Origin: Felis catus | Taxonomy: Eukaryota | Direction: 5' to 3' | Assembly (NCBI RefSeq): GCF_018350175.1 | Contig: NC_058372.1 | Location: 119,226,001 to 119,290,000 of the forward strand | Length of the DNA: 64,000 nucleotides | Shown: piece after piece, positions 31,065 through 62,926 of the stretch | How positions within the stretch are numbered: the first letter of the stretch is position 1 | Layout of the letters: every line of letters begins with the position of its first letter | The notes under the pieces: model-generated | Told to the model about the DNA's origin: nothing | What the model saw: only the letters and a program-made list of their open reading frames with translations | Databases searched by the model: none | Program-made: the position numbers and the translations under genes

Positions 31065-32111
31065 ATGGTGAACAATTCCGCCCAAGCTGCAGCTGTGGAA
31101 CTTTGCTATGAGAATGTGAATGGATCCTGCATTAAAACCTCGTACTCACCGGGTCCTCGAGCAATTCTGTACACAGTCCTTGGTTTTGGGGCTGTGCTGG
31201 CCATGTTTGGAAACTTACTGGTTATTATTGCTATCCTTCACTTCAAACAGCTGCACACACCTACAAACTTTCTGATCGTGTCCCTGGCCTGCGCTGACTT
31301 CTTGGTGGGGGTGACTGTCATGCCCTTCAGCACAGTGAGGTCTGTGGAGAGCTGCTGGTACTTCGGGGAGAGTTACTGTAAATTTCATACATGTTTTGAT
31401 ACTTCCTTCTGTTTTGCCTCTTTATTTCATTTATGCTGTATCTCCGTTGATAGATACATTGCTGTAACTGATCCTCTGACTTATCCAACCAAGTTTACTG
31501 TCTTGGTATCAGGCATATGCATTGTTCTCTCTTGGTTCTTTTCCATCACCTATAGCTTTTCCATCTTCTACACTGGGGCCAATGAGGAAGGAATCGAGGA
31601 CTTGGTTGTTGCTCTCACCTGTGTAGGAGGGTGTCAGGCGCCACTGAATCAAAATTGGGTTCTACTTTGTTTTCTTCTATTCTTTATACCCACTGTCGCC
31701 ATGGTGTTTTTATATGGTAAGATATTTTTGGTGGCCAAACATCAGGCTAGGAAGATAGAAAGTTCAGCCAGCCATCCTCAGTCTTCCTCAGAGAGTTACA
31801 AAGAACGGGTAGCAAAGAGAGAGAGAAAAGCTGCTAAAACATTGGGTATTGCTATGACAGCATTTCTTGTCTCTTGGCTGCCATACATTATTGATGCCGT
31901 GATTGATGCTTACATGAATTTTATAACTCCTCCTTATGTTTATGAGATTTTAGTGTGGTGTGTTTATTATAACTCAGCTATGAATCCCTTGATATATGCT
32001 TTCTTTTACCCATGGTTTCGGAAGGCAATAAAACTTATCATAAGTGGTAAAGTCTTAAGGAGAGATTCGTCAACAATCAATTTGTTTTCTGAGGAAGCAG
32101 ATATAGAGTGA
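31065..32111 (+). CDS. TAAR9: Trace amine-associated receptor 9 (348 aa, class A GPCR)
   Basis: Intact 7TM ORF starting [22 protein letters not shown], with DRY, CWYFG, D3.32 (CFDTSF), SWLPY and NSAMNPLIY. It closely matches the recalled human TAAR9 at the same length. K61, the site of the human nonsense polymorphism, is an intact AAA (31245-31247). Confidence 0.97.
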
Positions 32112-39441: not shown

Positions 39442-40473
39442 ATGCCCGGCCATCTTTCCCCACCTCCTGTTGGGCAGCTTTGCTATGAGAATGTGAACGG
39501 ATCGTGTGTTAAAACTCCCTACTCACTTGGATCCAGGGTGATTCTGTACGCAGTGTTTGGTTTCGCGTCTTTTCTGGCTGTGTTTGGAAACCTGCTGGTG
39601 ATGACTTCCGTTCTGCATTTCAAGCAGCTGCACTCTCCTGCCAATTTCTTGATTGCGTCTCTGGCTTTTGCTGACTTTCTGGTGGGGGTGACCGTCATGC
39701 CCTTCAGCATGGTCAGGTCTGTGGAGAGCTGCTGGTACTTTGGGGCCCGATTTTGTAGCCTGCACAGTTGCTTCGATGTGGCGTTTTGTTACTCTTCTCT
39801 CTTCCACCTGTGCTTCATCTCCATCGACAGGTACATCGCTGTTACTGAGCCTCTGGTCTATCCTACCAAGTTCACGGTGTCTGTGTCGGGGACATGCATA
39901 GGCATCTCCTGGATGCTGCCCCTTGTATACAGTGGTGCCGTGTTCTATACAGGCGTCAATGACGATGGCATGAAGGACTTAGTAAGTGCCCTCAACTGTA
40001 TAGGTGGTTGTCAAATTGTTGTAAATCAAGACTGGATCTTGATAAATTTTCTGTTATTCTTCATACCCACCCTTGTTATGATAATTCTTTACAGTAAGAT
40101 TTTTCTAGTAGCTAAACAACAAGCTATAAAAATTGAAAATACTGGTAGCAAAGCAGAATCATCCTCAGACAGTTACAGATCCCGAGTGGCCAAGAGAGAG
40201 AGAAAAGCGGCTAAAACCCTGGGTATCACAGTGGTAGCATTTATGATCTCTTGGCTACCATATACAATTGATACAGTAATCGATGCCTATATGGGCTTCA
40301 TAACCCCTGCCTATATTTATGAGATTTGCTGTTGGGGTGCTTATTATAACTCAGCCATTAACCCTTTGATTTATGCTTTATTTTATCCTTGGTTTAGGAA
40401 AGCCATCAAAGTTATTTTAAGTGGACAATTTTTAAAGGAGAGCTCATCAACCATCAGTTTATTTGTTGAATAA
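39442..40473 (+). CDS. TAAR8: Trace amine-associated receptor 8 (343 aa)
   Basis: Intact 7TM ORF with TAAR8-type segments ([57 protein letters not shown]). It sits next to TAAR9 as expected. Confidence 0.9.
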
Positions 40474-41500: not shown

Positions 41501-44269
41501 GCACAAGACCAGAGTTGGTGACACTACCCAAGGGTCTGTTTAGCAAATGATTTGTGATACTGTCTGTACCTTCCAGGAGCTTTTGGGGCAGGAGGTAAGC
41601 CTTTCTTGCTTAATGGCTGGGCAGAATCTTGGAATATTCACCTGTAATATCCTGGGGTCAGTAATTCGGCCTTGGAATCAGGTATTAACTACGGACATTG
41701 CACAGAAGTGAAAAACTGCAAATGGAAAAAATTGCCACAAGAAAGCTGGCCCAGCGATCATTAGCAATTGGAAATTCTGCAAGGGAAAGAATGATCAATT
41801 ATTGCTATCAGTGACACAAACTTTTCTCACCTGAATATACTGCATGCTTCCCTTTCCCAGAATGTTGTGGGGGTGAAAAAGTCTTTGCTGGTGCTGCAAA
41901 AACTTCTAATAAAAAGGATATAAAAAAACGATGCTCTAATTTTACATTTTGCTCTCTGGAATATTTTACATTGTTGATGTAACAAAAGTATTCTGGAATG
42001 CATATGTACAGTATTTTGTATAGTGAAGCTAAATTGTAATAGAGTACTGGTTTCAAAACCATTTTTTTTCTCTTTTTGGTTTATCTTTGGGTCACTCAGT
42101 TAAAATGGTTGAAATCTTTTTTTTTCCCATTGGCATTCACTGAGATTTTTCATTTTTTTCAAGCAAATATTGAGCATAAATTGCAGGCAAGTACCTGAGT
42201 TAGGAACAGCTAACAATAAAAAGAATGTTTTATATAGTATTTTCCTCAAGGAACATGATTTTGTAATAGGGGCTACACATTTTAAATTACATTATTGAGA
42301 ATGAAAAAAGTGTCAGAGATGCTAAGTCTTGTGAACAGAGGACTCACTGTCACTATTTGTCGTAAGGATGGTGTTTGGTGTTGGGCATTTCTAGGACATT
42401 GTCTTCTCACTCACATGTGGTCTCATGAACTGAGGGCTTAAAAATTGTCAAAGACTCTACTTCCTTAGTAGGAGGACCTTTCGATGAGTCTTCAAGCATT
42501 GGACTTTCATAGGCAGACAGGAGTGTGGACATTTTTTGACAGGAGGGTTAATTTCCACAAATAGAGGATTGGCTTGGAAAACCGTATGACAATGAATACA
42601 TTATAGCACAATGACCAATTCATGCTTCCACTTACTATATACTCAATAGATCAGATTGGCTGTCACAGCTTTTAAAAAGGACTTCATGTTCCTTATTTTT
42701 AGAGTATAGAGGACAAACATAGAAAAAAGTAACTGAGAGAGTAGAAGGGTCCCATTTTATAAATGTCTCATAGCATTACATTGTTGCTAAATTACAACGA
42801 ATACGACAGAAGTTCAAAGGCAAATTAAGGATTTTTGAAATTTATCTTATGGGCAAGCAAAATATATTGTGGCAAATGCTACCAAGACTTCCAATACAAT
42901 TCTAAATCTGAAATCTCTGGGTATGTGAAACGTCACAAAGAGAAAAGAAAGAAATTAGATTCTTCCATATATTTCATGATAGTCTTTCCTAAGAATGACT
43001 ACCTGAGATATGGATTCAAAAATTCAGGATTAAATTCTTTGCTGTATTTTATCCTTAGTTTAGGAGAGAATTAACACTTAATATAACTGGCCAAGAAGTA
43101 AAGAAATGTAAAGTAAAGAAATCAACATAAATATGTTTTCAGGATAAAACTAAGTTAAGATCAAGGAAATTGTGGGATGTTGGGAATTTCCGATGTATTA
43201 TGATGTAGAATACAGTGTTGATGATGATATCAAATTTGAAAAAAGGCGTTCTTCAACTTCAATTAAATATTGTTTAGAGTGAGCTTCCCCAAGCATCTAC
43301 AAACAGATTGACTGACGTGGTGAACGAGGTCCTATTTCCTACTGCTGATTCTGCCCATTTCTCTGCTCTGTCACGTTTCTGCTTCCCTGTCTTTGGTGGT
43401 GGTGGTGGTGGGGGTTCGGGAGGGTGGTGAATTTCTTGGTATTTTCACTTTTTATGCTTACCTCCCTGTTAGCTTCAATGCTCATTTTCTTCTTCCTCTT
43501 CTCTATTAATGTCATGTGCTCTTGGCCTTCCCCTAGACTCTTGTTTTTTTCAGCCAACTTTCATTCCAACATTTTCTTTTGCTAGAGTTCTTTTCTTAAA
43601 TCTCCTCAGCTCCCTCTGCTTCATGCTCTAGCAAGGAGTTGAGTTCCTCTTACTCCTCCTCTTCCAACAGTAAGGGAATCAGATGTCACATTCAGATCTG
43701 GCTCAGGCCTGACATTTAATGTTTAGAGGACATTGGACAATTAACCACGACAAAATGATACGTTCACCACAATAAATAGTTCTTCAACATAATTACTTTC
43801 ATGTGGTATGTCACTTCATTTCTTCCTCATGACATGGGAATAATTGCCCTATCATGGCATATTATAAACATCATCTACCGCTGTCATAATTGATCATAAT
43901 GCAAACTTATGATGTCACATAGTCATGAGGAAAGATGAGCCAGTCAAGAAGTTGTGTTTGAATATTTTGATATCTATTTGGGAAAAAAAAAAAGTTCTGA
44001 TTCTCACTCTTCCCTTACACATGTGCCCTTACATACATATTGTTCAGGACAGATCTTAGTGTAAAATATAAAGCCAGGAAAATTTAGAAGATAATGCTGG
44101 AGATTATTTTCATAGTTTCTCGTGGAAAAGATTGCCAGGTTAACTATAGATTTAATATTTCCACATGATAAATCAAAATGTCAAAAAGATAAACTTGAAA
44201 AAAACTCCTTAGAATATTTATTTTATTCTAATGGTTTTCGTTGAAAATGGAGAAAAAAAAAGACGTTTG

Positions 44270-44490
44270 GGGCACCTGGGTGGCTCAGTCAGTTGAGCAT
44301 CCGACTTCGGCTCAGGAAACGATCTCACAGCTCGTGAGTTCAAGCTCCACGTCGGGCTCTGTGCTGACAGCTTGGGGCCTGGAGCCTGCTTCGGATTCTG
44401 TGTCTCCCTCTCTCTCTGCCCTTAACCCACTTTCATTCTGTCTCTGTCTCTCTCAAAAATAAATAAACATCAAAAAAAATTTTTTTAAAG
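44270..44490 (+). mobile_element. Can-SINE
   Basis: Full head, (CT)n and A tail. Confidence 0.95.
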
Positions 44491-44750
44491 AAAAAAGAAA
44501 AAGATGTTTGTTTTCCTGGCCCTTGAGTCTCAAAAGTCTAGGCCCTGGGAGAAAGGAAAAAGAGCCTACCTTGAACAGATTTGGGGAAGTAAGGGCTATA
44601 GAAAAGCTTGCCTACATCCCAGAACAAGAGTAGAAAGATAATTGGAGTACAAAAATAAGTGAGAAAATAGTGAAGGTCTCTGAGGGAGGAGCACCCGATT
44701 TCTCCTGGATACGGTCTGGTTTGAGAAAAGGGGTGATAACTGATATGCAA

Positions 44751-45214
44751 TTGTGGTGGGTTGAATAAGAACCCCACAAAGAGATCCATATCTAGACCCT
44801 GGAACCTATACCTATTAAATATTATTTGGAGAAAAAAATAAAGGTCACTGAAGGTGTGATTGAGATAAGCATCTTGAGAGGGGGAAGTTAGCCTGGATTG
44901 TCCAGGTGGGTCCAAAAGGCCATCACGAGAGTCTTTACAGGAAAGAGGCTGAGAGATATGACACACACGGAAGAGAAGGCAGTGTGATCACACAGGTAGA
45001 GACTGGAGCGACGAGACCACAGCATGTCAGCAGCCAGCAGAAGCAGGGAGAAGGATGGATTGTCCCCAAGCCCCCTCAGAGGGTGCGCCGCCTTGCTTTG
45101 ATGTTGGATGTCATGCTTTCAGCCTCCAAGACTCTACAGGGATAAAATTTCTGTCGTTATAAAAGCCCCCAAGTGTGTGATGAGTTGTTACAGCAGTGAC
45201 AGGAAACTAATATA
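44751..45214 (+). mobile_element. MLT1 (MaLR) solo LTR
   Basis: tgtggtgggttgaat ... aatttctgtcgttataaaagcc ... acaggaaactaatata. Confidence 0.88.
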
Positions 45215-46214
45215 TCAAGTGTGTTTGCAGGGACACGCTCCAAATGCAAGGGGAAACTCATTCTCCTTTCCCTGGACAGAACTCAGTGTGTATAAAGACC
45301 ACCGGGCAGAAATGGCTGCATAGGCTGAGCACGTAGCCTGAGACAGCACCACAGAGCACCTCATTGCTCTGCGTGGTACAGGGACAATAAAAGATTCCTG
45401 AGCCCCTGATTGTGCCTTGGAGTCATGACAGGTCCTAGAAACCCCTCCAAATGTTCCACCGCCCGTGATGCCACAAGTATAGCTGAATTTTTCTGAAAAG
45501 GGAAAGGAATTGGCCGCTACATGTAAGAGCTAAAGAAGCCTTACTGCCAGGTAGGAACGATGACTGCTCTGTGACAGGACTGGGCCAACGTCCAGAGACC
45601 AGGCAGGACATCTCATTGAATATCAGGGAGAGTGGATGGTCCCCCAGACCAGATCTCTAGTCTACAGAGTCATTGGTGATGTGTGGTTGACTCAGAGAAG
45701 AAAGTAGGGAAAGCCCAGATAGACGGAGAGGAAGTTTTTATCACTTGGAAGTTAGGGGCATGGCACAGACCTTAGGTTCATTTATAGTTGTACAACATAG
45801 AGGAGCAGAACACAAAACCTGGAGCTAAACTGCTTGGATACAAATCCCCAGTTACCATTTACTAGAAGTTCATGCTGGGTAAGTGATCAACTTGCAGGGT
45901 TTCAGTCCTTCATCTGCCGAATAGGGTTAGTAGCTATGCTGACCTCATTGGGTTTTGTGTGTGTGTGTCAGTTTAATAACTGAATACATGTAAACTCCCA
46001 AGATATAGCAGGTGTTCAAAAGTTGTCTGCTACTGTGAAAATGATAGTTGCCTAAACAATAAAGTAACACGTTTTGCACACCTGTGCCCTGTGTTCACAG
46101 AAAATACTTGTGGGTCTTTCTAGATTTACTACCATGTTTTAGGAAGCATTTCTGTAAAACAGACAATTAAAAGCCATAAGATAAGAGCTATTACCCAAAT
46201 TATAAGAAAAAAAC

Positions 46215-46431
46215 TTTAAGTTTATTTATTTATTTTGAGAGAGAGAGGGAGAGAGAGAGAGCTTGAGCAGGGGAGGGGCAGAGAGAGGGGCGGGGGTAGA
46301 GGGAGTCTCAAATAGGCTCTTCACCACCAGTGCAGAGTCTGACCCGGGCCTTGAACCCACGATCCGTGAGTTCATGACCTGAGCCAAAATCTAGAGTCAG
46401 ACACTCAACCGACTGAGCCACCCAGGCGCCC
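46215..46431 (-). mobile_element. Can-SINE
   Basis: Antisense full-length. Confidence 0.92.
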
Positions 46432-47384
46432 TTCTGAGAAAACTTGTATAAAGATGTTAGGTAGGTGCTCCGCAGTTACACGTTGAGAAATACCTGGTTA
46501 CTATGATGAGACAGAGTTGAAAGAGAACTTCAGAATGTTTTCAATTTCATGGACGGACACAAGGTATTAGCAGAGGCTGAGCGGAGGCGAGGGAGGGAAG
46601 GAGGGAAGGAAAGCTAGAGAGAAAATGACAGACTACTCTGATGTAACTCAAATCTCTGAGTCAAGGACACCGAAAAGGAAGGGGCTTGAGACTCAGGTTT
46701 AAGACCCTCAATTAATCACTTACTCTCAATGAAAGTGGAGCTCTTTCCTGGGGATAGAGGAAAGACTGATGAGGCTGTGAATTCTGAAAAAGCCAAAACA
46801 GCATGCCATTCACTGAGCCACACCTGGATGGACTGGAGCAGTGTAAGAGGTTGCCAGATTCATAGTCTAGAGGGGGGCTATTGATAAGCACATTATTCAG
46901 AGTTTAGGGTCCTGTGAACATATGATTTTTCATTATGAGATAGACGGCCATTTCATCCTAGAGGACACCTACAAAGACAATCCCAGTCTATGCATGCAGC
47001 ATCGAGGCAGACTGCATAGGACCCTGGAATTTAGAGGAAAGCTTGGAAGAAGACAGTGGGATCCCATGGCATTGGGGCTTACAAGAGAGTTAAAGACATG
47101 TTATCAAAAAACCAAGAAGACTGCCTTCTGTGGTAGGTGAGATCTTCACGTGCTAATATGTATGTTTTCTCTACCTCCACGCACTAGTCATCAGATAAAA
47201 TCTGAAATGATCATTGGGACGTACAAAGCTGTGCACAACATCTGAATCTTTCCCTGTTCTTTACATTAGTACCTTCCTTTCCTCCTCATCCTTCTATCCG
47301 GGCCCTAAATTTACACTCTCAGTGAATTCTATTTATTCACCCCAGTTCTATTAGTTGTTGATGTCATTTCTCACTACACTTTTT

Positions 47385-48150
47385 AAATGTGTTTATTTTA
47401 TTTTATTTTATTTTTTATTGAAATCCAAGTTAGTTAACATATAGTGTAATAATGATTTCAGGATAGAATTCAGTGATTCATCACTTAACATGTAACACCC
47501 AGGGCTCATCCCAGCAAGTGCCCTCCTTAATGCCCATCTCCCATTTAGCCCTCCAGCAACCCTCAGTTTGTTCTCTGTATTTAAGAGTCTCTTATGGTTT
47601 GTCTCCCTCCCTGTTTTTATATTGTTTTTGCTTCCCTTCCCCTTTTGTTTCTTGAATGCCACATATGAGTGAAATCATACGACATTATCTTTCTCTGACT
47701 GACTTATTTCGTTTAGCAAAGTACACTCTCGTTCCATCCACGTTGATGCAAATGTCAAGATTTCATTCTTTCTGATTGCTGAGTAATATTCCATTGTATA
47801 TATATACCACATCTTTATCCGTTCATCAGTGGATGGACATTTGGGCTCTTTCTGTAATGTAATTTGGCTAGTGTCGATAGGGCTGCTATAAACATTGGGG
47901 CGCATGTGCCCCTTCGAATCAGCATTTTTGTATCCTTTGGATAGACACCTAGTAGTACAGTTGCTGGGTCGTAGGGTAGTTCTGTTTTTAATTTTTTGAG
48001 GAGCCTCCATACTGTTTTTCCAGAGTTACTGCACCAGTTGGCATTCCCACCAGCAGTGCAAAAAAAAAGTTCCTCTTTCTCTGCTTCCTCCCCAACATCT
48101 GTTGTTGCCTCCTGAGTTGTTAATGTCAGCCATTCTGGCAGGTGTGAAAC
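47385..48150 (-). mobile_element. Carnivore L1 3' end
   Basis: Antisense ORF2 end (WYIYTMEYYSAIRKNEILTFASTWME) plus 3' UTR. Confidence 0.92.
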
Positions 48151-48496
48151 GGTATCTCATTGTGATTTTACACGTGTTAATTTTAGCTGGAAGCACCGTG
48201 AATTGTTATGTTATGTCTGTCTCTCACGTTAACATGGAAACTCACCCTAAGGGAAGAAGATATTTTGTGTTTATTCCTGTATGTTGAAGACCTTGCACAA
48301 ATAGATGCTTCATAAATAACCAAATATAAATATTGCATTACACAAATGATTGAACCGCAGGCAGATTTATGGGCGTCTTGGGAGAACTTATGTTCCCTGA
48401 ATCTTTTACTAAAGCATCTAAACCTTTTTACTCATCTTGAAGAGAATATTGTCACATTTCAGTATTGAGTGTATCATATGAGATAGGTCCTTTTTG

Positions 48497-48730
48497 TTTT
48501 TTTTTTTTAATTTTTTTTTTAACATTTATTCATTTTTGAGGGTGAGAGAGACAGAGCATGAGTGAGGGAGGGACAGAGAGAGAGGGAGACACAGAATCCG
48601 AAGCAGGCTCCAGGCTCCGAGCTATCAGCGCAGGGCCTGACATGGGGCTCGAACTCATGGACCTTGAGATCACGACCTGAGCCGACATCAAGAGTCGGAC
48701 GCTTAACCGACTCAGCCACCCAGGCTCCCC
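48497..48730 (-). mobile_element. Can-SINE
   Basis: TSD gagataggtcctttttgt. Confidence 0.95.
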
Positions 48731-49145
48731 AGAGATAGGTCCTTTTTGTACAGACCTCTACAGGTACAAAAGACCTCTGGTTTTTTAGAGTAAGCTAAGA
48801 ATTTTTATTGTTAGTAATGAATACAGTTTGAAATTTATCAAATACATTTTTTCACTTCATCAGATGATTGTTAGATTTTAATCTGTTACAATGCTGATTT
48901 GTATTAATAGATTGTCTAATTTCAAAGCAAACTTTCATTCTTGGCATCAACTCGAATGATCTTTTTTATATATTTCTGGATTGAGTTTGTAACAGTTTGT
49001 GTAGGATTTTTTGCATTGTTGCTTATGAGTGAGAGTTTTCTCTCATTTTCCTTTTTCAAATTGTCTCTGGGAGTTTTAGCATTGAGGCTACAGCAAAACA
49101 TAAACTTTAGTGGAGATAATTAAATATAAGTTTCTCGTCCCTGTT

Positions 49146-49169
49146 TACACCTTACGCTACAGGGATTCC
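49146..49169 (+). promoter_or_regulatory. Shared TAAR upstream motif, copy 3 (mosaic TAAR)
   Basis: TACACCTTACGCTACAGGGATTCC, about 560-580 bp upstream of the ATG, with TAATTA about 30 bp upstream. Confidence 0.75.
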
Positions 49170-49725
49170 ACCTTAGCTTTTGGGTGTGGATTTGGGGTGT
49201 GAGATTCAGCAGTGCTTCTGGGGATTTTGTCATTACTCTTCAGACAGTCTTGGGGTGGGTGTAATAAAAGGTAACCGACAGATAACAAATCACACATATC
49301 TCACTAACGTTGACAAAGAGAAATATCCCTGTATCACGACCAGGTAAATAACAGATTATTGACAAATTGTAAGGCAAGAAGAAATCTTTGGGATTAGCAA
49401 ATTGGTAAAAGATGTACTTGAAATTAAACAATTGCACTTAGAAAATGGATTCCAAGTATATTCTAAGGTAAGCAAAATAATGGTAACAATGAATTAAGCT
49501 AAGATTTGTTGAACATTTGAATTGAATATATTACTTCAAGTGTTCAAACATTAAAATTAATAGGAGTATGTGACAGGCCATGGAGATATTGTCCGATAAC
49601 TATAACAAAGGTAGGCAGTTGCAAAGGACCTTTTCTCCGCCTTAGGAAGTAAGAAACTGCTCTGCTTGGTCCGACTGGCCAAGGGCAGAACTTCTCCACG
49701 TTTGCAAGCTGTTTGCAGCAGCACC

Positions 49726-50763
49726 ATGAGCACCAACCCGTCCCCCGCGGCATCCGAGCAGCTCTGCTACCAGAACGTGACCGGATCCTGCGCGAAAGCC
49801 CCCTACTCGCCCGGACCCCGGCTCATTCTCTACACACTGTTCAGCTTGGCGGCTGTGCTGGCCGTTTTTGGAAACCTCCTGGTGGTGATTTCAATCCTGC
49901 ATTTCAAGCAGCTGCACTCGCCAACCAATTTTCTCATCGCCTCTCTGGCCTGCGCTGACTTTCTGGTGGGGGTGACCGTCATGCCCTTCAGCATGGTCAG
50001 GTCTGTGGAGGGCTGCTGGTACTTTGGGGCCAGCTTTTGTAGCCTGCACAGTTGCTTCGATGTGGCGTTTTGTTACTCTTCTCTCTTCCATCTGTGTTTC
50101 ATCTCCATCGACAGGTACATCGCTGTTACTGAGCCTCTGGTCTATCCCACCAAGTTCACGGTGTCCGTGTCGGGGACATGCATCGGCATCTCCTGGATCC
50201 TGCCCCTTGTATACAGTGGTGCCGTGTTCTTCACAGGTGTTCATGATGACGGGCTGGAGGAATTAGTGAGTGCCCTCAGCTGCGTAGGCGGTTGTCGGCC
50301 ACTTATAAATCAATTTTGGATTTTGATAGATTTGCTATTATTTGTCACACCTACTTTTGTAATGATGGTGCTGTACAGTAATATTTTTCTTGTGGCTAGA
50401 AAACAGGCTATAAAGATTGAAAACATTGGTAGCAAAACAGAAGCATCAGGGACATACAAAACCAGGGTGAGTAAGAGAGAGAGAAAAGCAGCTAAAACCC
50501 TGGGTATCACGGTGGTAGCATTTTTGATCTCCTGGTTACCGTACATGATTGATTCACTCATTGATTCTTTTGGGGGGTTTGTAACACCTTCTTATGTCTA
50601 TGAGATACTTTGCTGGTTCGCTTATTATAACTCTGCTGTAAATCCTTTGATCTATGCTTTATTTTATCCTTGGTTTAGGAGAGCAATAAAACTCATTATA
50701 AGTGGTCAAGCATTAAGAGTAGACAGTTCATCAACTATGAATTTGTTTTCTAAAAAACCCTAA
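49726..50763 (+). CDS. TAAR6/7/8-family receptor, mosaic paralog at the syntenic TAAR7 position (345 aa)
   Basis: Intact 7TM ORF from ATG 49726 in a good Kozak context (GCACCATGA); the ORF track's 49666 start is a TTG. It has DRY, D3.32 (D112), D5.43 (D202) and NPLIY. Its segments match different neighbours, so orthology is ambiguous. Confidence 0.93.
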
Positions 50764-51645
50764 ATTTCAAATTGAGGAATTTATTGATATATTGGGAATT
50801 TAATGACCCAGTAAATTGAGGAGGAAAAATGGTACCTCAATTTCAGGGGCATAACTTTTCTGCTTCGTTTTTGTGGTGAACTAAACATCTTCAAGTATTT
50901 GACAGAAATGTGCTTACTAAACAATGGTTGACCCAGAGTTTATATTTCCCAGTTTCTCCAAATCTGTGTACTTCCCTGCTTTGTCGGTTCTTTACTTATG
51001 TTTCATGTCCAGGCCTCCCTTTCAACCTTGTCTTTAAGCCGCTTTCAAAGGTTTCCAGTGAAATCTTGCCCATCCCTGTCTTCTCTGGACTCCGTGTGCT
51101 TGGCTTCCATTTTAAGCTGTTTGTTTCTTGGGGGCCCATCTTTCTGTAGCTCCTGGAGATCTCCGAGCCATACACATCGGTCACTCCAGACTCAGAGCCA
51201 GACTCATATTTTATATCGTTGGAGACATTTTGTGGAATAATTATGAGCAGACCTTGTAAAATGCGTACCAGAGATTGTCCTTTATGTGATTGTCTCTTAT
51301 CCCATGAGGTACGTTGTTTTTCCTTCCAGCCATTGTGGAGGGCCGTTTTCTGCCATTTCTTTTCTCTTTATTACACTATCCAGAGTGGTACATTGTTGGT
51401 GAACTAAATAACAATATATTATAAGTTATGGTAGAAGGATGAACTGTTCAAGAAGGGATGATATGGTATAAAGCTCTTTGGAGAATATTGTTAAACATCT
51501 CATGTCATGCCATTCACAAAAGCAAAGCAAATTTCTTTCAGATGTTAGAAGAGTCAAAGAAAATATTTTATAATTTTTCACTGGAGGAACCCTGACTGAA
51601 ACCGCCTGTAGCTTTCTGCACATAATTTAAATTTTACGACTTCAA

Positions 51646-51850
51646 GGGCGCCTGGGTGACTCAGTCAGTTGAGCGTCCGACTTCGGCTCAGGTCATGATC
51701 TCATGGTTTGTGTGTTTGAGTCCCGGGTCAGACTCTGTACTGCTCAGAGCCTGGAATCTGCTTCCGATCCTGTGTCTTCCCTTTCTCTGCCCCTCCCTTG
51801 TTTGTGCTCTGTATGTCTCTCTCTCTCTCTCTCTCAAGTTAAAACTTCAA
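51646..51850 (+). mobile_element. Can-SINE
   Basis: Head, (CT)n and tail. Confidence 0.92.
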
Positions 51851-52249
51851 AAGAAAACAAATTTGGGGGGAGGGAGGCAAACTTGGGGAAATTACTGGCA
51901 GCAAACATGGTGAAGGGAAGGTTAATAGATTTAAAAACATAGAGGCCTTTTCCAAAACAGGCATAGCTTAACACCTCCCATACAAATAAATAGGCGATTT
52001 TACGGAGGAAAAAAGTATGATTAATAAATACATTAAAATGCCAAACGTACACATAATTTTAAAATGTTAAAATGTGGCAGTGGTTCATATATCAAGTGGG
52101 CAAATATTAGAAGAATAAGAAATACCTGATAACAATTAGGGTGTGGAAAATTGAGCACTCTTGAGAAAGTAGAACTTGTTCACATACATCTCACAAGAAT
52201 ACAACTTAGTATCAGTTTTCGGAGGGGAATTAAATTTTTTTTATAAATT

Positions 52250-52480
52250 TTATTTATTTTTTTTTAATTTTTTTTCAACGTTTTTATTTATTTTTGGGAC
52301 AGAGAGAGACAGAGCATGAACGGGGGAGGGGCAGAGAGAGAAGGAGACACAGAATCGGAAACAGGCTCCAGGCTCCGAGCCATCAACCCAGAGCCCGACG
52401 CGGGGCTCGAACTCACGGACCGCGAGATCGTGACCTGGCTGAAGTCGGACGCTTAACCGACTGAGCCACCCAGGCGCCCC
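52250..52480 (-). mobile_element. Young felid SINE (SINEC_Fc-type)
   Basis: CpG-intact; flanks tttttttataaatttta. Confidence 0.95.
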
Positions 52481-52695
52481 TTTTTTTATAAATTTTAAAA
52501 TACACCTGTCATTTCTAGTAAGGAATCCAAAAAAAAAAAAAAAAGTCAGTCAAGGAAGCAAACATCACAAGGACATTTACTGTATAATTCTTAATTATTA
52601 CTTGGAATAATCTAGGAGCAGTGTGGACTGAATTCAATAAACTATGCTCTAACCACATAATGGGATGTTTTGGTGCCATTAAAAAGCACTAACAA

Positions 52696-52852
52696 GGGGC
52701 GCCTGGGTGGCTCAGTTGATTAAGCATCCAACTCTTGATTTCAGCTCAAGTCATGATCGAGAGATCATGGACATGGAACCTGCTTAAGATTCTCTCTCTC
52801 CCTCTCCCTTTGCCTCTCCCCTGCTCAAGCTCTCTGTCAAGAAAAAAAAAAA
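52696..52852 (+). mobile_element. Can-SINE (short)
   Basis: TSD aaaagcactaa. Confidence 0.92.
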
Positions 52853-53798
52853 AGCACTAATGAGTTCTGCATAAATTGATATATGCATACACTTCCTACA
52901 TGCTTTTACAAAGTGTAACTTTATGTGTAATAGACAGTATGTATCTGGTGGGGGGTGGGGTGGGGTGGAGAATTTGCTTTGTAATTTATCTTTATCATTT
53001 TAATGTATGAAAATGAGATGAAAATATTAAAATAGATATTACAGTAAATGAATAAATAAATAAACAAACAAAAGAGATATTACCCACATGTGTCTACTTT
53101 TACCTGAGCATTGAAGTTAGGTTTATCGATGTATTTGCTTGTTTTATTTCAGGGGAAGATCTTTTGAGTATATATCTCTGCTACATTTTTCTTCCTAAAG
53201 AAATGAAATTGTAGCTGCGTTGGTATATTTCAGGGACTACATCTTAAAGTGATTCAATTATCTTAGGTATTACATCTTAATGTTGTTAAGCATTTGGTTT
53301 TTTATTTGTTTGTTTGTTTTGCAGCAGATCTCTAAGTTTCTCGAACTCTTCCCCTCTAATATTAATAATGTGCTATATTCAGGAGCTATGGGAGCTAGCA
53401 ACAGTCACTTCTCAATCTGTCATTTGTATTTTATTTCTACGCTTTAGGTCCCCTCTTGAAAAGCGAAAACAGCAACAGTGCAGATGTTCAGTCCATCACC
53501 TGCTTTGAGAGACTCAGCTTCCTAGCAGGCTGGAAGGAGCACTTCTCTTCCTGAAGGGGATGCCCCGGGTCTGCTCCTTAGAGGCAGGGAGACAGATTCC
53601 TTAATAGACCTCACAGAACACCCATAGATGCTACTGTGGAGGCCAAGGCCCCTGGAGCTTTGATGTCACACCGGGGCGGGGGACGGGGGGGGGGGGGGGG
53701 GGGAGGAAGGAGTAGAATCCCTAAATTTACTGGGATCTGTTTCTTGTTCCTGGTGGGCTATGAGCCTCTAAGCAATACTTAAGAATATTGTAAAACAA

Positions 53799-53930
53799 GG
53801 GGCAGCTTGGTGGCTCGACTGGTTAAGCCTCTGACTCTTGGTTTCGGCTCAGATCATGATCTCATGAGTTCTGCCCCTCCCCCACTCACACTGTCTCTGT
53901 CTCTGTCAAAATAAATAAATACACTTTTTA
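53799..53930 (+). mobile_element. Can-SINE, internally deleted
   Basis: Head joined directly to the (CT)n and tail. Confidence 0.85.
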
Positions 53931-54079
53931 AAACAGAGCATTACAGAAAAATAAATTGCACTGTAGCACAGCTGAGTAAATAGTAGCCAAGAAATGTACC
54001 TGTCACTGTGTATATTGTATGTCCTCTCCCCTCTCCACACCTTAGTGCACATTGTCCTCTGTGACGATATCCTCCTGGT

Positions 54080-54288
54080 TTTTTTTATGTTTATTTATTT
54101 TTGTGTGTGAGAGACAGCACGCATGTGAGTAGGGGAGAGGCAGAGAGAGGTGGAGACACAGAATCAGAAGCAGGCTCCAGGCTCTGAGTTGTCAGCACAC
54201 AGCCCCATGCCGGGCTCAATCCCATGAACCACAAGATCATGACCTGAGCTGAAGTCGGTCACTTACCCAACTAAGCCACCCAGGAGCC
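54080..54288 (-). mobile_element. Can-SINE
   Basis: Antisense full-length. Confidence 0.92.
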
Positions 54289-54409
54289 TCTGGATATTCT
54301 GTTTTTACCATAAATCTCTCTTCTTAACCGACTAGACACATTTTAAGTTCATCTCCTTGGTAAATTTGCTCCCAACACACTTGGATAAAACTCAGTACTA
54401 TTATTAAAG

Positions 54410-54649
54410 CCTTTATTTATTTGTTTCTTTAATTTTACTTTTAAACTTTATTTATTTTGAGAGAGAGAGTGTGTGCATGTGAGCAAGGACAAGCGGGTAA
54501 GGGGCAGAGAGAGGGACAGAGAGAATCCCAAGCAGGCTCCGTGCTTTCAGCGCAGAGCTCGAAGTGGGCTGGATCTCACCACTGTGAGATCATGACCTGA
54601 ACCGAAATCAGGAGTTGGGCGCTTAACCGACTTACGCACCCAGGTGCCC
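54410..54649 (-). mobile_element. Can-SINE
   Basis: Antisense full-length. Confidence 0.92.
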
Positions 54650-54819
54650 TGATCATTAATGCCTTTATAACAAATAACTGACAACCTTAATTTTGAAGGG
54701 TAGCATAAATACCTTTCAAAATTGAATGCAAAGTAAAAATATTTTTAGATGAATAAAACCCGAGAATCTTCATTGCTGGCATACCCACGCAAAGAGAAGA
54801 ACTAAAGGGAGTGTTTTAT

Positions 54820-55034
54820 TTTAATTTTTAAAAAGTTTTTATTTATTTTTGAGACAGAGAGAGACAGAGCATGAGCAGGGCAGGGGCAGAGAGAGAAGGA
54901 GACACAGAACCCGAAGCAGGCTGCAGGCTCTGAGCTGTCAGCACAGAGCCCGATGTGGGGCTAGAACTCACCAACCGTGAGATCATGACCTAAACCGAAG
55001 TCCGACGCTTAACCGACTGACCCACCCAGGCGTC
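54820..55034 (-). mobile_element. Can-SINE
   Basis: Antisense full-length; flanks taaa(g/a)ggagt. Confidence 0.92.
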
Positions 55035-55539
55035 TCTAAAAGGAGTTTTCAACCTAGAAGGAAAATAATCCCAGAGGAAACACTGTAGTGTGGGAAGTAA
55101 TGAAGTGTGCCACAGAGTGTCAATACCAGAAAAATAAAATGAATGCTAGAAGTAAAAATAAATGTCTTTTTGACTTAAATTATATGCAGAATTAAATGAC
55201 CACGGTAGCAATAAAATGGCCAAGACAAACGGAGTTAAAGTATATATTGAAATGCCTGGCAAGCTTTTGCATTGCCCTGAATTGGCAAAATTATTAACTT
55301 ATTAACTTACTGGAGAATTTAATTAATCATATTAAAACTCTAGGATTCCAACAGAACAAGTATAAGTAAGTCCAATTTATAATTTCATGGGAGAAAAAGG
55401 GTGAATACTAAAAAATAATAATTTAAAATGAGTCCAGAATAATAAAAGAACAAAGAAAAAATGTGAAGAAAAAATATATTTAGTTAGTTTAAACCCAAAT
55501 ACATCAACAATTATATTAAATATATGAGAATACACATTC

Positions 55540-56480
55540 AGATTTTCATCCAATTAAAAGATGACCAGAAGACATGAACAGACATTTCTCCAAAGCAGAC
55601 ACCCAGATGGCCAACAGACACATGAAAAGATACTTAACATCACTCGTCAGTAGGAAAATACAAATCAAAACTACATGAGATATCACCTCACACCTATCAG
55701 AATGACTAAAATAAAAAATACAAGAAACAACAAGTGTTAGCAAGGATGTGCACATAAAGGAACTTGCACTGTTGGTGGAAATGCAAACTGGTGCAGCCAC
55801 TGCAGAACACGCTATGGAGTTTCCTCAAAAAGTTACGAACAGAACAACCCTACAATCCAGTAATCGCACTTCTGGCTACTTACCCCCAAAATACAAAAAC
55901 ACTAATTAACAGGGATACATGCACCCCTATGTTTATTGCAACATTATTTACAGTAGCCAAATTATGGAAGCAGCTCAAGTGTCCATCAACAAATGAATGA
56001 ATAAAGCAGATATGGTATACGCACACACACCACATGCAAATACAATGTAATATCACTCAGCTATAATAAGATAGAAATCTTGCCATTTGCAACACCATGG
56101 ATAGAACTAGAGTGTAATATTAAGCAAAATAAGCCAATCAGAGAAAGACAAATGCCATATGATTTCACTCATCTGTGAAATTTAAAGCACAAAAAAAAAA
56201 TTAGCAAAGAAAAAAAAAAGGAGAGAAAGAAAGTCATGAAATAGACTCTTAATTGTAGAGAACAAACTGATGTTCTCTATAAATAACCGAAGGGAGGTGG
56301 GTGAGGGATGAAGGGTGAACTAGGCGATGGGGATTAAGGAGTACCCTTGTGATGAGTTCCTCCATGATGTATGGAATTGTTCAATCACTATATTGTACAC
56401 ATGAAACTAATATAACACCATATGTCAACTATATTGGAATAAAATCGAATAAAATAAAGTAAAATGAAATAAAATAAAAT
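55540..56480 (+). mobile_element. Carnivore L1 ORF2 end and 3' UTR with (TAAAA)n tail
   Basis: [35 protein letters not shown] remnants; tail at 56440-56480. Confidence 0.92.
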
Positions 56481-60693: not shown

Positions 60694-61731
60694 ATGAGCA
60701 CCAACTCTTCCCCCTCTGCATCCGAGCAGCTCTGCTACCAGAACATGACCGGATCCTGCGCGAAAGCCCCCTACTCGCCCGGACCCCGGCTCATTCTCTA
60801 CACACTGTTCAGCTTGGGGGCTGTGCTGGCCGTTTTTGGAAACCTCCTGGTGGTGATTTCAATCCTGCATTTCAAGCAGCTGCACTCGCCAACCAATTTT
60901 CTCATCGCCTCTCTGGCCTGTGCTGACTTTCTGGTGGGGGTGACCGTCATGCCCTTCAGCATGGTCAGGTCTGTGGAGGGCTGCTGGTACTTTGGGCCGA
61001 GTTTCTGTACCTTCCACACGTGCTGTGATGTGGCATTTTGTTATTCTTCCCTCTTCCACCTGTGCTTCATCTCCATCGACAGGTACATTGCTGTTACTGA
61101 GCCTCTGGTCTATCCTACCAAGTTCACGGTGTCCGTGTCGGGGACATGCATCGGCATCTCCTGGATCCTGCCCCTTGTATACAGTGGTGCTGTGTTCTAC
61201 ACAGGTGCCTATGATGATGGGCTGGAGGAATTATCTCGTGCCGTCAACTGCGTAGGAGGTTGTCAGACCGTTGTAAATCAAAACTGGGTGTTGATAGATT
61301 TTCTATCCTTCTTTATACCTACCCTCGTTATGATAATTCTCTATAGCAATATTTTTCTTGTGGCTAGACAACAGGCTAAAAAGATTGAAGATACTGGGGG
61401 CAAAATAGAATTGTCATCAGCTAGTTACAAATCCAGAGTGGCCAAGAGAGAACGAAAAGCAGCAAAAACCCTGGGTATCACTGTGGTAGCATTTATGATT
61501 TCATGGTTACCGTACAGTATTGACTCATTAATTGATGCTTATATGGGCTTCATAACCCCTGCCTACATCTATGAGATTTGCTGTTGGTGTGCTTATTATA
61601 ATTCAGCCATGAACCCTTTGATTTATGCTTTATTTTACCCGTGGTTCAGGAAGGCCTTAAAAATTATCATGAGTGGTTGGGTTTTCGAGGACAGTTCACC
61701 CACCATGAATTTGTTCTCTGAACAAATGTAA
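60694..61731 (+). CDS. TAAR6: Trace amine-associated receptor 6 (345 aa)
   Basis: Intact 7TM ORF with TAAR6-diagnostic [40 protein letters not shown] and TMNLFSEQ, at the same length as human TAAR6. The N-terminus differs from human TAAR6 and is shared with the third gene. Confidence 0.92.
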
Positions 61732-62254: not shown

Positions 62255-62828
62255 TGGTGTCTGTGTCAGGAATTTGCTTCAGCAGCTCCTGGACCCTGCC
62301 TCTTGTATACAGTGTATACAGTGGGTGCCTCTGAGGATGGGATGAAGGAATTAGTAAGTGCCGTCTGTTCCATACATGGTTGCCAGCTTGTTATAAATCA
62401 ATTCTGGATAGTGATAGAATTTCTGTTATTTTTCACATTTAGCTTTCTTAATATTACATCTAGTAATGTTTTTCTTGTGGCTAGAAAACATACTAAAGAA
62501 ATTGAAAATATTAGTACAAAACAAAATCATTATCAGGAACTGGCAAGGCTAAGATGGCTAAAAGAGAGAAAAACAGCTGATACCCTGGCACAGTATAGCA
62601 GTTTTGGTCTCATGATTACCACATGCAATTGACTCATTCACTGATTCTTTTTAGGGGTTTATGACACCTTCATGTGTTATGAGATATTTTGTTGGGTTGG
62701 TTATTGTAACTCTGCTCTAAATTCTTTGATATATGCTTTACTTTACCCTTGGTTTGGGAGAGCAGGAAAAACTTATTATAAGTAAAAGAGATTCATCGAC
62801 CACAAATTTAATTTCTAAATTAACCTAA
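62255..62828 (+). pseudogene. 5'-truncated TAAR pseudogene (TM4 to C-terminus), related to the 49726-50763 gene
   Basis: Translates in pieces as VSVSGICFSSSWTLPLVYS, GCQLVINQFWIVIEFLLF, NVFLVARKH..IENI and ERK, with decayed NSA-N-LIYAL-YPWFG sequence. It has multiple frameshifts and no 5' half is visible. Confidence 0.9.
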
Positions 62829-62926
62829 ATTGTTAATTTGAGAAAAAAAGACATCAATCTGGTGACGTGTTACAAATTTCCTAATAATTATAAATGTGAA
62901 TTATAGCACATTAAAATGACATTTTA

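Follow-up and report, generated by a model that had tools for sequence, protein, structure and literature searches.

The TM3 island of a cat TAAR gene looks like part of a layered gene-conversion mosaic rather than a protected specificity cassette

Why should a cat TAAR gene be nearly identical to the neighbouring TAAR6 on both sides of a 69-nt block encoding part of TM3, but clearly different from it within that block? The window analysed here is a stretch of 64,000 nucleotides of Felis catus contig NC_058372.1, and the gene in question, the third in the window, is referred to as gene 3. A preliminary description of this DNA had attributed the pattern to a conversion between gene 3 and TAAR6 that skipped the ligand-binding TM3. 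It proposed either that selection had removed conversions erasing ligand specificity or that a later conversion from TAAR8 had overwritten only this segment, and in both cases it regarded TM3 as a swappable specificity cassette. Our analysis confirmed gene conversion itself, as the near-identity is patchy, includes synonymous sites and lies inside old paralogues with divergent flanks; the route of the conversion and its meaning appear to be different. The window contains four intact single-exon GPCR genes, all on the + strand and named after their cluster mates:

31065..32111, + strand: TAAR9, the control paralogue
39442..40473, + strand: TAAR8, the putative ultimate donor of the island
49726..50763, + strand: gene 3, an intact TAAR of 345 aa, called 'TAAR6-like' in felid relatives and likely the + strand copy of TAAR E1
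60694..61731, + strand: TAAR6, whose island equivalent (60997-61065) represents the ancestral TAAR6-type state

Gene 3 is an olfactory-clade TAAR (TAAR5-9) with mTAAR7f and mTAAR9 as the closest solved relatives (E about 2e-155), and Asp3.32 (D112), Trp6.48 (W270) and Tyr7.43 (Y300) are all present. TM3 positions were counted from R130 = 3.50 and checked against mouse TAAR7f, whose Asp127 (3.32) aligns with D112. TM3 corresponds to residues 102-135 in the AlphaFold model of gene 3, whose mean pLDDT of 53 gives rough limits only. TAAR8 is the neighbour of gene 3, 9 kb away. A broken TAAR piece at 62256-62845 is a 3' fragment that is closest to gene 3 and its inverted sister, which is described below.

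An ungapped comparison of gene 3 with TAAR6 (offset 10,968) yielded 3 mismatches in 279 nt (49750-50028), 16 in 69 nt (50029-50097) and 3 in 133 nt (50098-50230). These are exactly the counts given in the preliminary description, and the island peptides were also as stated there. Uniform scatter of 22 mismatches over 481 nt placed 16 of them within 69 nt in none of 50,000 trials. The region is divided as follows:

49750..50028, + strand: upstream tract, common to gene 3 and TAAR6 (3/279), with the last 75 nt also common to TAAR8 (1/75)
50029..50097, + strand: island, a TAAR8-type TM3 top, codons 102-124 (3.22-3.44)
50035..50090, + strand: island core, in which gene 3 equals TAAR8 (0/56 differences, synonymous sites included)
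50059..50079, + strand: codons 112-118, with D3.32, V3.33, C3.36, Y3.37 and S3.38 the same in gene 3, its inverted copy, TAAR6 and TAAR8
50098..50230, + strand: downstream tract, homogenised among gene 3, its inverted copy, TAAR6 and TAAR8 (pairs that are not identical differ at 3-5/133)

Eleven of the 16 island mismatches and all five amino acid changes between gene 3 and TAAR6 (A102P, S106T, L107F, S109T and F111C) fall in 50029-50058, that is, in residues 102-111 (3.22-3.31), which form the extracellular third of TM3 within the limits of the low-confidence model. The last two mismatches (50091 and 50097) occur in gene 3 and its inverted copy alone; because TAAR6 and TAAR8 agree at both positions, the informative island ends at 50082. 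Over the whole island, gene 3 differs from TAAR6 at 16 positions, from TAAR8 at 4 and from the inverted paralogue at none. Conversion did not skip this segment, as the preliminary description had it: with 0/56 differences from TAAR8 in its core, the island was not spared.

Nor is the downstream tract specific to TAAR6, as gene 3 and TAAR8 differ there at 4 of 133 sites and TAAR6 and TAAR8 at 5 of 133. Between gene 3 and TAAR8, 53/204 differences upstream are followed by 1/75, 4/69 and 4/133 across 49954-50230, and the values for TAAR6 and TAAR8 over the same segments are 1/75, 15/69 and 5/133. Therefore, conversion in this zone has been three-way, and what truly forms the island is an old difference between TAAR6 and TAAR8. 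The longest identical runs between these two genes are 58, 44 and 38 nt, and those of the control TAAR9 are 16 nt with TAAR6 and 26 nt with TAAR8. Within 30 nt (50029-50058), flanked by two strongly conserved blocks, TAAR6 and TAAR8 differ at 12 sites. Their divergence in the island (pS 0.59 and pN 0.119, from 23 codons only) is similar to that in the unconverted parts (pS 0.54/0.48 and pN 0.169/0.138) and, judged from these proportions, appears to be at the background level, not above it.

The GC content at third codon positions reaches 0.72-0.75 where sequence has been converted (49750-50230 and the TAAR6/TAAR8 equivalents); in the 3' halves it is 0.32-0.45, and the 5' half of TAAR9 has a value of about 0.5. 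The raised values are what GC-biased conversion would give. Gene 3 also contains an in-frame 114-nt GT..AG interval (50001-50114, residues 92-129) that comprises ECL1 and most of TM3, with the island, and has a 5-nt repeat at both ends. Gene-3 residues 92-129 are missing from the annotated models of cat (P0013), lion (P0016) and fishing cat (the first part of P0143), and the interval may represent a real exitron, a template-switch artefact or an annotation artefact. Conversion via a spliced cDNA without 50001-50114 was set aside, because the homogenised tracts run into that interval.

A genome search with gene 3 identified a near-perfect inverted match outside the window:

L003:932-1957, - strand: inverted paralogue, an intact gene of 341 aa, 34 kb past gene 3
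49623..50710, + strand: near-identity tract of gene 3 with the inverted paralogue, about 1.1 kb, the left edge being taken from contig loose ends

The two genes show no differences in 596 nt (49672-50267) and four in 1,009 nt (49672-50680), as against 13/80 in the C-terminal tail and about 25% divergence in both flanks. As far as can be judged from sequence, they represent an old inverted duplication carrying a recent tract of about 1.1 kb, and the inverted paralogue would be the proximate donor to gene 3. Cat gene 3 has the letters of this sister at 50032, 50034, 50091 and 50097, where TAAR8 differs. Beyond the inverted paralogue lies a broken TAAR6-like gene, after which come TAAR5 to TAAR1-like genes. 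The blocks of the old inverted duplication (window 43126-55544 versus L002-L003) are 72-85% identical and reach well past the genes, and the horse TAAR cluster has an inverted layout similar to that of the cat. Two broken TAARs were noted: one at L002:3500-4300 on the - strand, closest to TAAR9 among those compared and located where the horse has TAAR7aP, and a TAAR6-like gene with a frameshift at L003:8856-9900, whose 5' part has only 4/203 differences to TAAR6.

Near-identical inverted repeats of 1 kb are hard to assemble, and gene 3 might have been polished or collapsed with its inverted twin; both reference copies have C at 49850, where four other runs have G. Against such an artefact, which we regard as extremely unlikely, stand independent runs from other cats, in which a single contig over about 50210-50666 has ~2x single-copy depth (X2, X4 and X12; run X8 is low-depth over this interval, 13.8 vs 8.3-10.9). 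At most one other letter was found over the interval, and none at codons 295-299 in four of four runs. A contig with the reference letters across the island core has ~2x single-copy depth in five of eight runs (X1, X4, X6, X12 and X13), with TAAR8 adding to the island depth; X11 (depth 62 vs about 2,000), X8 (low depth) and X2 (island piece not displayed) are uninformative for island copy number. The contigs are unphased and drop minor alleles, so that depth indicates presence, not fixation, and the assembly may itself derive from the best-matching run. Both gene 3 and the inverted copy exist and are not an assembly collapse. At 49850 itself, the C of the two reference sister genes encodes Ala42, other felid sister-gene proteins seen have Gly, and the contigs with G come from runs X4, X6, X11 and X13; this may be a polymorphism common to both copies, possibly a sign of ongoing conversion.

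Comparison with other species was made on annotated proteins (15 of 40 cluster members), in which near-identical paralogues can be mis-assembled. Orthologues were sorted by FastTree on residues 170-345 (the C-terminal half), leaving out fused, partial and exon-skipping models (such as P0005, P0007, P0013, P0016, P0137 and P0143) and redundant hits. The gene 3 island is TAAR6-type in all six other felids counted (tiger, clouded leopard, jaguar, leopard cat, cheetah and Canada lynx); the lion gene-3 model is without the island segment and stands outside this count. Homogenisation of felid islands with TAAR6, which the preliminary description had itself named as contrary to its view, is thus what these six species show, and its idea that selection removed conversions erasing specificity fails on the same observation. 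The inverted copy is TAAR8-type in four of five other felids (tiger, leopard, jaguarundi and Geoffroy's cat) and in two hyaenas; fishing cat and meerkat have the TAAR6-type. Among felids, cat and tiger are the only species in which both sister genes were seen. Within the gene-3/inverted-copy clade, meerkat and three bears have a TAAR6-type island, and 23 of the 34 proteins are TAAR6-type (FHT at 107-109). As this is the common state of the clade, the TAAR8-type is derived. A second position bears on the direction of copying:

50617..50622, + strand: codons 298-299, Phe-Ala in cat gene 3; residue 299 is 7.42 and a second marker of overwrite direction

Residue 299 is Gly in 7/7 other felid gene-3 proteins and Ala in the inverted-copy proteins of all six felid species; among felid gene-3 proteins, that of the cat alone has the sister's Ala299. 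Two markers more than 500 nt apart thus agree, suggesting that the sister overwrote gene 3 after the leopard cat line had split off. The split of cat from the leopard cat line dates back about 6 million years. The two sister genes of the tiger have derived Ala47 and Val132 in common, on both sides of the island, yet the island differs. At the protein level, further lineage-specific substitutions are common across paralogues (felid Gly96, Panthera Ala47, jaguarundi Val38 and bear Met132/Cys146). The island has been crossed in cat gene 3, in the fishing cat inverted copy and in striped hyaena TAAR6. The last case, P0198, is a TAAR6-clade protein with a TAAR8-type island, which is either a real conversion or an assembly chimera; spotted hyaena TAAR6 keeps the TAAR6-type. 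An inversion between the sister genes would swap the gene-3 and inverted-copy labels in some species; it cannot explain both cat copies being alike.

From the identities, the inverted paralogue, the old flanks and the states observed in other species, we infer the following direction and order of events. Conversion probably proceeded in two steps, from TAAR8 to the inverted sister and from there to cat gene 3, with a neutral mismatch barrier at the island. An old, short TAAR8 patch would have entered the inverted sister gene, and in the cat lineage the sister would have overwritten roughly 1 kb of gene 3. Conversion among TAAR6, TAAR8 and both sister genes would often have affected the two flanks, the ten codons dense in old TAAR6/TAAR8 differences being crossed by occasional long tracts only. 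The island likely acts as a mismatch barrier, and selection on ligand tuning would not be required. In the available text of PMC3924837, gene conversion is described as needing high similarity and stopping as substitutions accumulate; therefore, 12 differences in 30 nt can persist neutrally. Given the background-level divergence and at least three carnivoran crossings, a neutral mismatch barrier suffices, and selection may still have contributed. The later TAAR8-to-gene-3 conversion of the preliminary description is thereby upheld as to its source, and its direct small patch gives way to a likely overwrite of ~1 kb from the inverted paralogue.

Whether the island affects ligand specificity depends on the positions that changed. 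According to the accessible parts of two studies (bioRxiv 10.1101/2023.07.07.547762 and 10.1101/2025.08.25.669582), the TM3 contacts of mouse TAAR7f are 3.32, 3.33, 3.36 and 3.37 (PDB 8pm2), its other contacts are 5.42, 6.48, 6.51, 6.52, 7.39, 7.42 and 7.43, and the tuning switch between TAAR7e and TAAR7f is 3.37/3.38. All five TM3 positions (3.32, 3.33, 3.36, 3.37 and 3.38) are identical across the four cat genes (gene 3, inverted copy, TAAR6 and TAAR8), and 109 proteins of three clades show almost no variation at 3.32, 3.36, 3.37 and 3.38, but more at 3.33. TM3 as a swappable specificity cassette thus draws no support from the known contact and tuning positions, which are identical in all cat paralogues compared. 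Of the changed TM3 residues, only 3.29 (Ser/Thr), listed as a ligand-binding site in the available text of PMC4786312, is a possible pocket-edge position. A term search of the accessible text of five papers found no mention of 3.26-3.31 as contacts, which means that they are unreported there, not shown to be irrelevant; the literature searched yielded no assay of the changed residues. At 7.42 (window 50620-50622), a contact in mouse TAAR7f, the putative overwrite changed Gly to Ala in cat gene 3, and we predict that retuning of gene 3, if any, is likelier to come from this change in TM7 than from the TM3 patch. In the part of PMC8890504 available to us, cat TAAR6a, TAAR6b (= the inverted gene) and TAAR8 are cloned, and 'Cat TAAR6' is among the deorphaned receptors in Table S3.

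The same copying history could be combined with selection that maintains separate versions of the TM3 top (3.22-3.31) in TAAR6 and TAAR8 and preserves the TAAR8-type in the inverted gene; the proposed reason is a role of these residues in the pocket entrance, in ECL1/ECL2 packing or in delivery to the surface. The persistence of the TAAR6/TAAR8 difference at the TM3 top is what selection would also give, an origin that we consider unlikely but well worth keeping in mind. At 107-109, 32 of 38 proteins of the TAAR6 clade have FHT and 28 of 37 of the TAAR8 clade have LHS, the flanks are converted right up to both island edges, and the felid inverted gene is TAAR8-type in 5/6 species even though TAAR6/gene-3 substitutions have entered it on either side of the island. 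Of 14 mammalian TAAR6/TAAR8 pairs, 13 have a downstream flank with greater similarity within species than across lineages, a pattern that residues 102-111 do not follow on average (pooled within/cross ratio 0.55 versus 1.03, hyaenids left out of the ratio). The pattern also corresponds to the 'peak of divergence' signature published in PMC3924837, as far as that text was available, and the listing of 3.29 as a binding site points the same way. However, the known TM3 contacts are identical, pN and pS of the island do not exceed background, variation among TAAR8 orthologues is highest in precisely this segment (0.335 differences per site), the carnivoran reference genomes contain at least three crossings, and support for the TAAR8 clade is low (0.40). 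In a divergence-peak test, the gene 3 block was not paralogue-specific across species, and the TAAR6 versus TAAR8 difference mostly was. On balance, we judge the full selective account rather unlikely. Still more doubtful is an extended form of it, in which two ancient versions of the TM3 top are held apart by selection across placental mammals and shuffled by conversion into TAAR E1, retuning it, domestic cats having recently lost the TAAR6-type E1 that other felids keep; if this were true, the loss would change which amines domestic cats smell.

A direct small conversion of the segment from TAAR8 to gene 3, later copied from gene 3 to the inverted gene, would fit the adjacency of TAAR8 at 9 kb and the 0/56 identity. 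It is nevertheless very unlikely, as this island is already present in the inverted gene of tiger, leopard, jaguarundi, Geoffroy's cat and two hyaenas, tiger gene 3 is without a TAAR8-type island, and cat gene 3 follows its sister at four positions at which TAAR8 differs (50032, 50034, 50091 and 50097) and has the sister's TM7 residues as well. That a TAAR6-to-gene-3 conversion skipped TM3 because selection purged conversions erasing gene 3's own ligand specificity is almost certainly wrong. The two clean tracts around a divergent island are what it would produce within the window, but the island matches TAAR8 rather than the ancestral sequence of gene 3, and a TAAR6-type island in 6/6 other felids, meerkat and three bears refutes it unless six annotations are mis-assembled.

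Judged from synteny and clade, gene 3 and the inverted copy are likely members of TAAR E1, the comparison with the E1 named by Eyun et al. (2016) being one of position and description. The available part of that study (PMC4786312, Table S2) gives the horse order as TAAR9b, 8b, E1bP (+), 7b, 6, 7aP (-) and E1aP (-). The cat order of TAAR9, 8, gene 3 (+), 6, a broken TAAR (-) and the inverted copy (-) matches the places and strands of horse E1bP and E1aP. The C-terminal halves of gene 3 and its sister fall into a clade apart from TAAR6, 7 and 8 that includes shrew and tenrec genes (support 0.978, 34 proteins). As far as available, the text of PMC4786312 limits E1 to shrew, hedgehog, tenrec and elephant, its table adds the horse pseudogenes, and its authors inferred E1 loss in Euarchontoglires. 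The apparently E1-like clade is intact in felids, hyaenas, meerkat, bears, warthog, bats and rabbit, a wider distribution than that of Eyun et al. (2016). The carnivoran E1-like genes share their 5' half with TAAR6. Such mosaic 5' halves distort whole-gene TAAR6, TAAR8 and 'TAAR6-like' orthology, trees and dN/dS, and may explain the weak support and seeming rarity of TAAR E1. The genes also provide natural chimeras: gene 3 of the cat and that of the cheetah or tiger differ at the TM3 top and at 7.42, so that the effect on amine tuning can be assayed directly.

In the literature searched, with most subscription journals outside its scope, we found no account of conversion or concerted evolution among mammalian TAAR6, TAAR8 and E1, and the word 'conversion' did not occur in the accessible text of PMC8890504 and PMC4786312. 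The mosaic is thus apparently undescribed for the TAAR cluster, though of a known kind. The meerkat, another feliform, likewise has several similar TAAR6/8-like paralogues, of which one primer pair amplifies segment 1 of all five (PMC12659089); in the available text of that study, unlike here, the term 'gene conversion' is absent and no mosaic analysis is given. The mouse TAAR7e/7f switch described above is comparable in that TM3 residues can swap the tuning of paralogues, and 3.37 and 3.38 lie inside the 69-nt island. In the cat, however, these positions are Tyr117 and Ser118 in all four genes, and the changed residues lie 6 to 15 positions further out. Exon 5 of the human red/green opsins (PMC3924837) and frog ATP1A1 (bioRxiv 10.1101/2020.08.04.234435), as described in the parts available, resemble the cat TAARs in having a short divergent block between near-identical flanks in tandem paralogues and species-specific sharing in the flanks. 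In those systems, the retained differences are substitutions shown to set function, whereas the cat TAAR block has identical known contacts and background-level divergence and has repeatedly been crossed. In this comparison, the cat pattern looks like an ordinary layered gene-conversion mosaic and not a protected specificity cassette.
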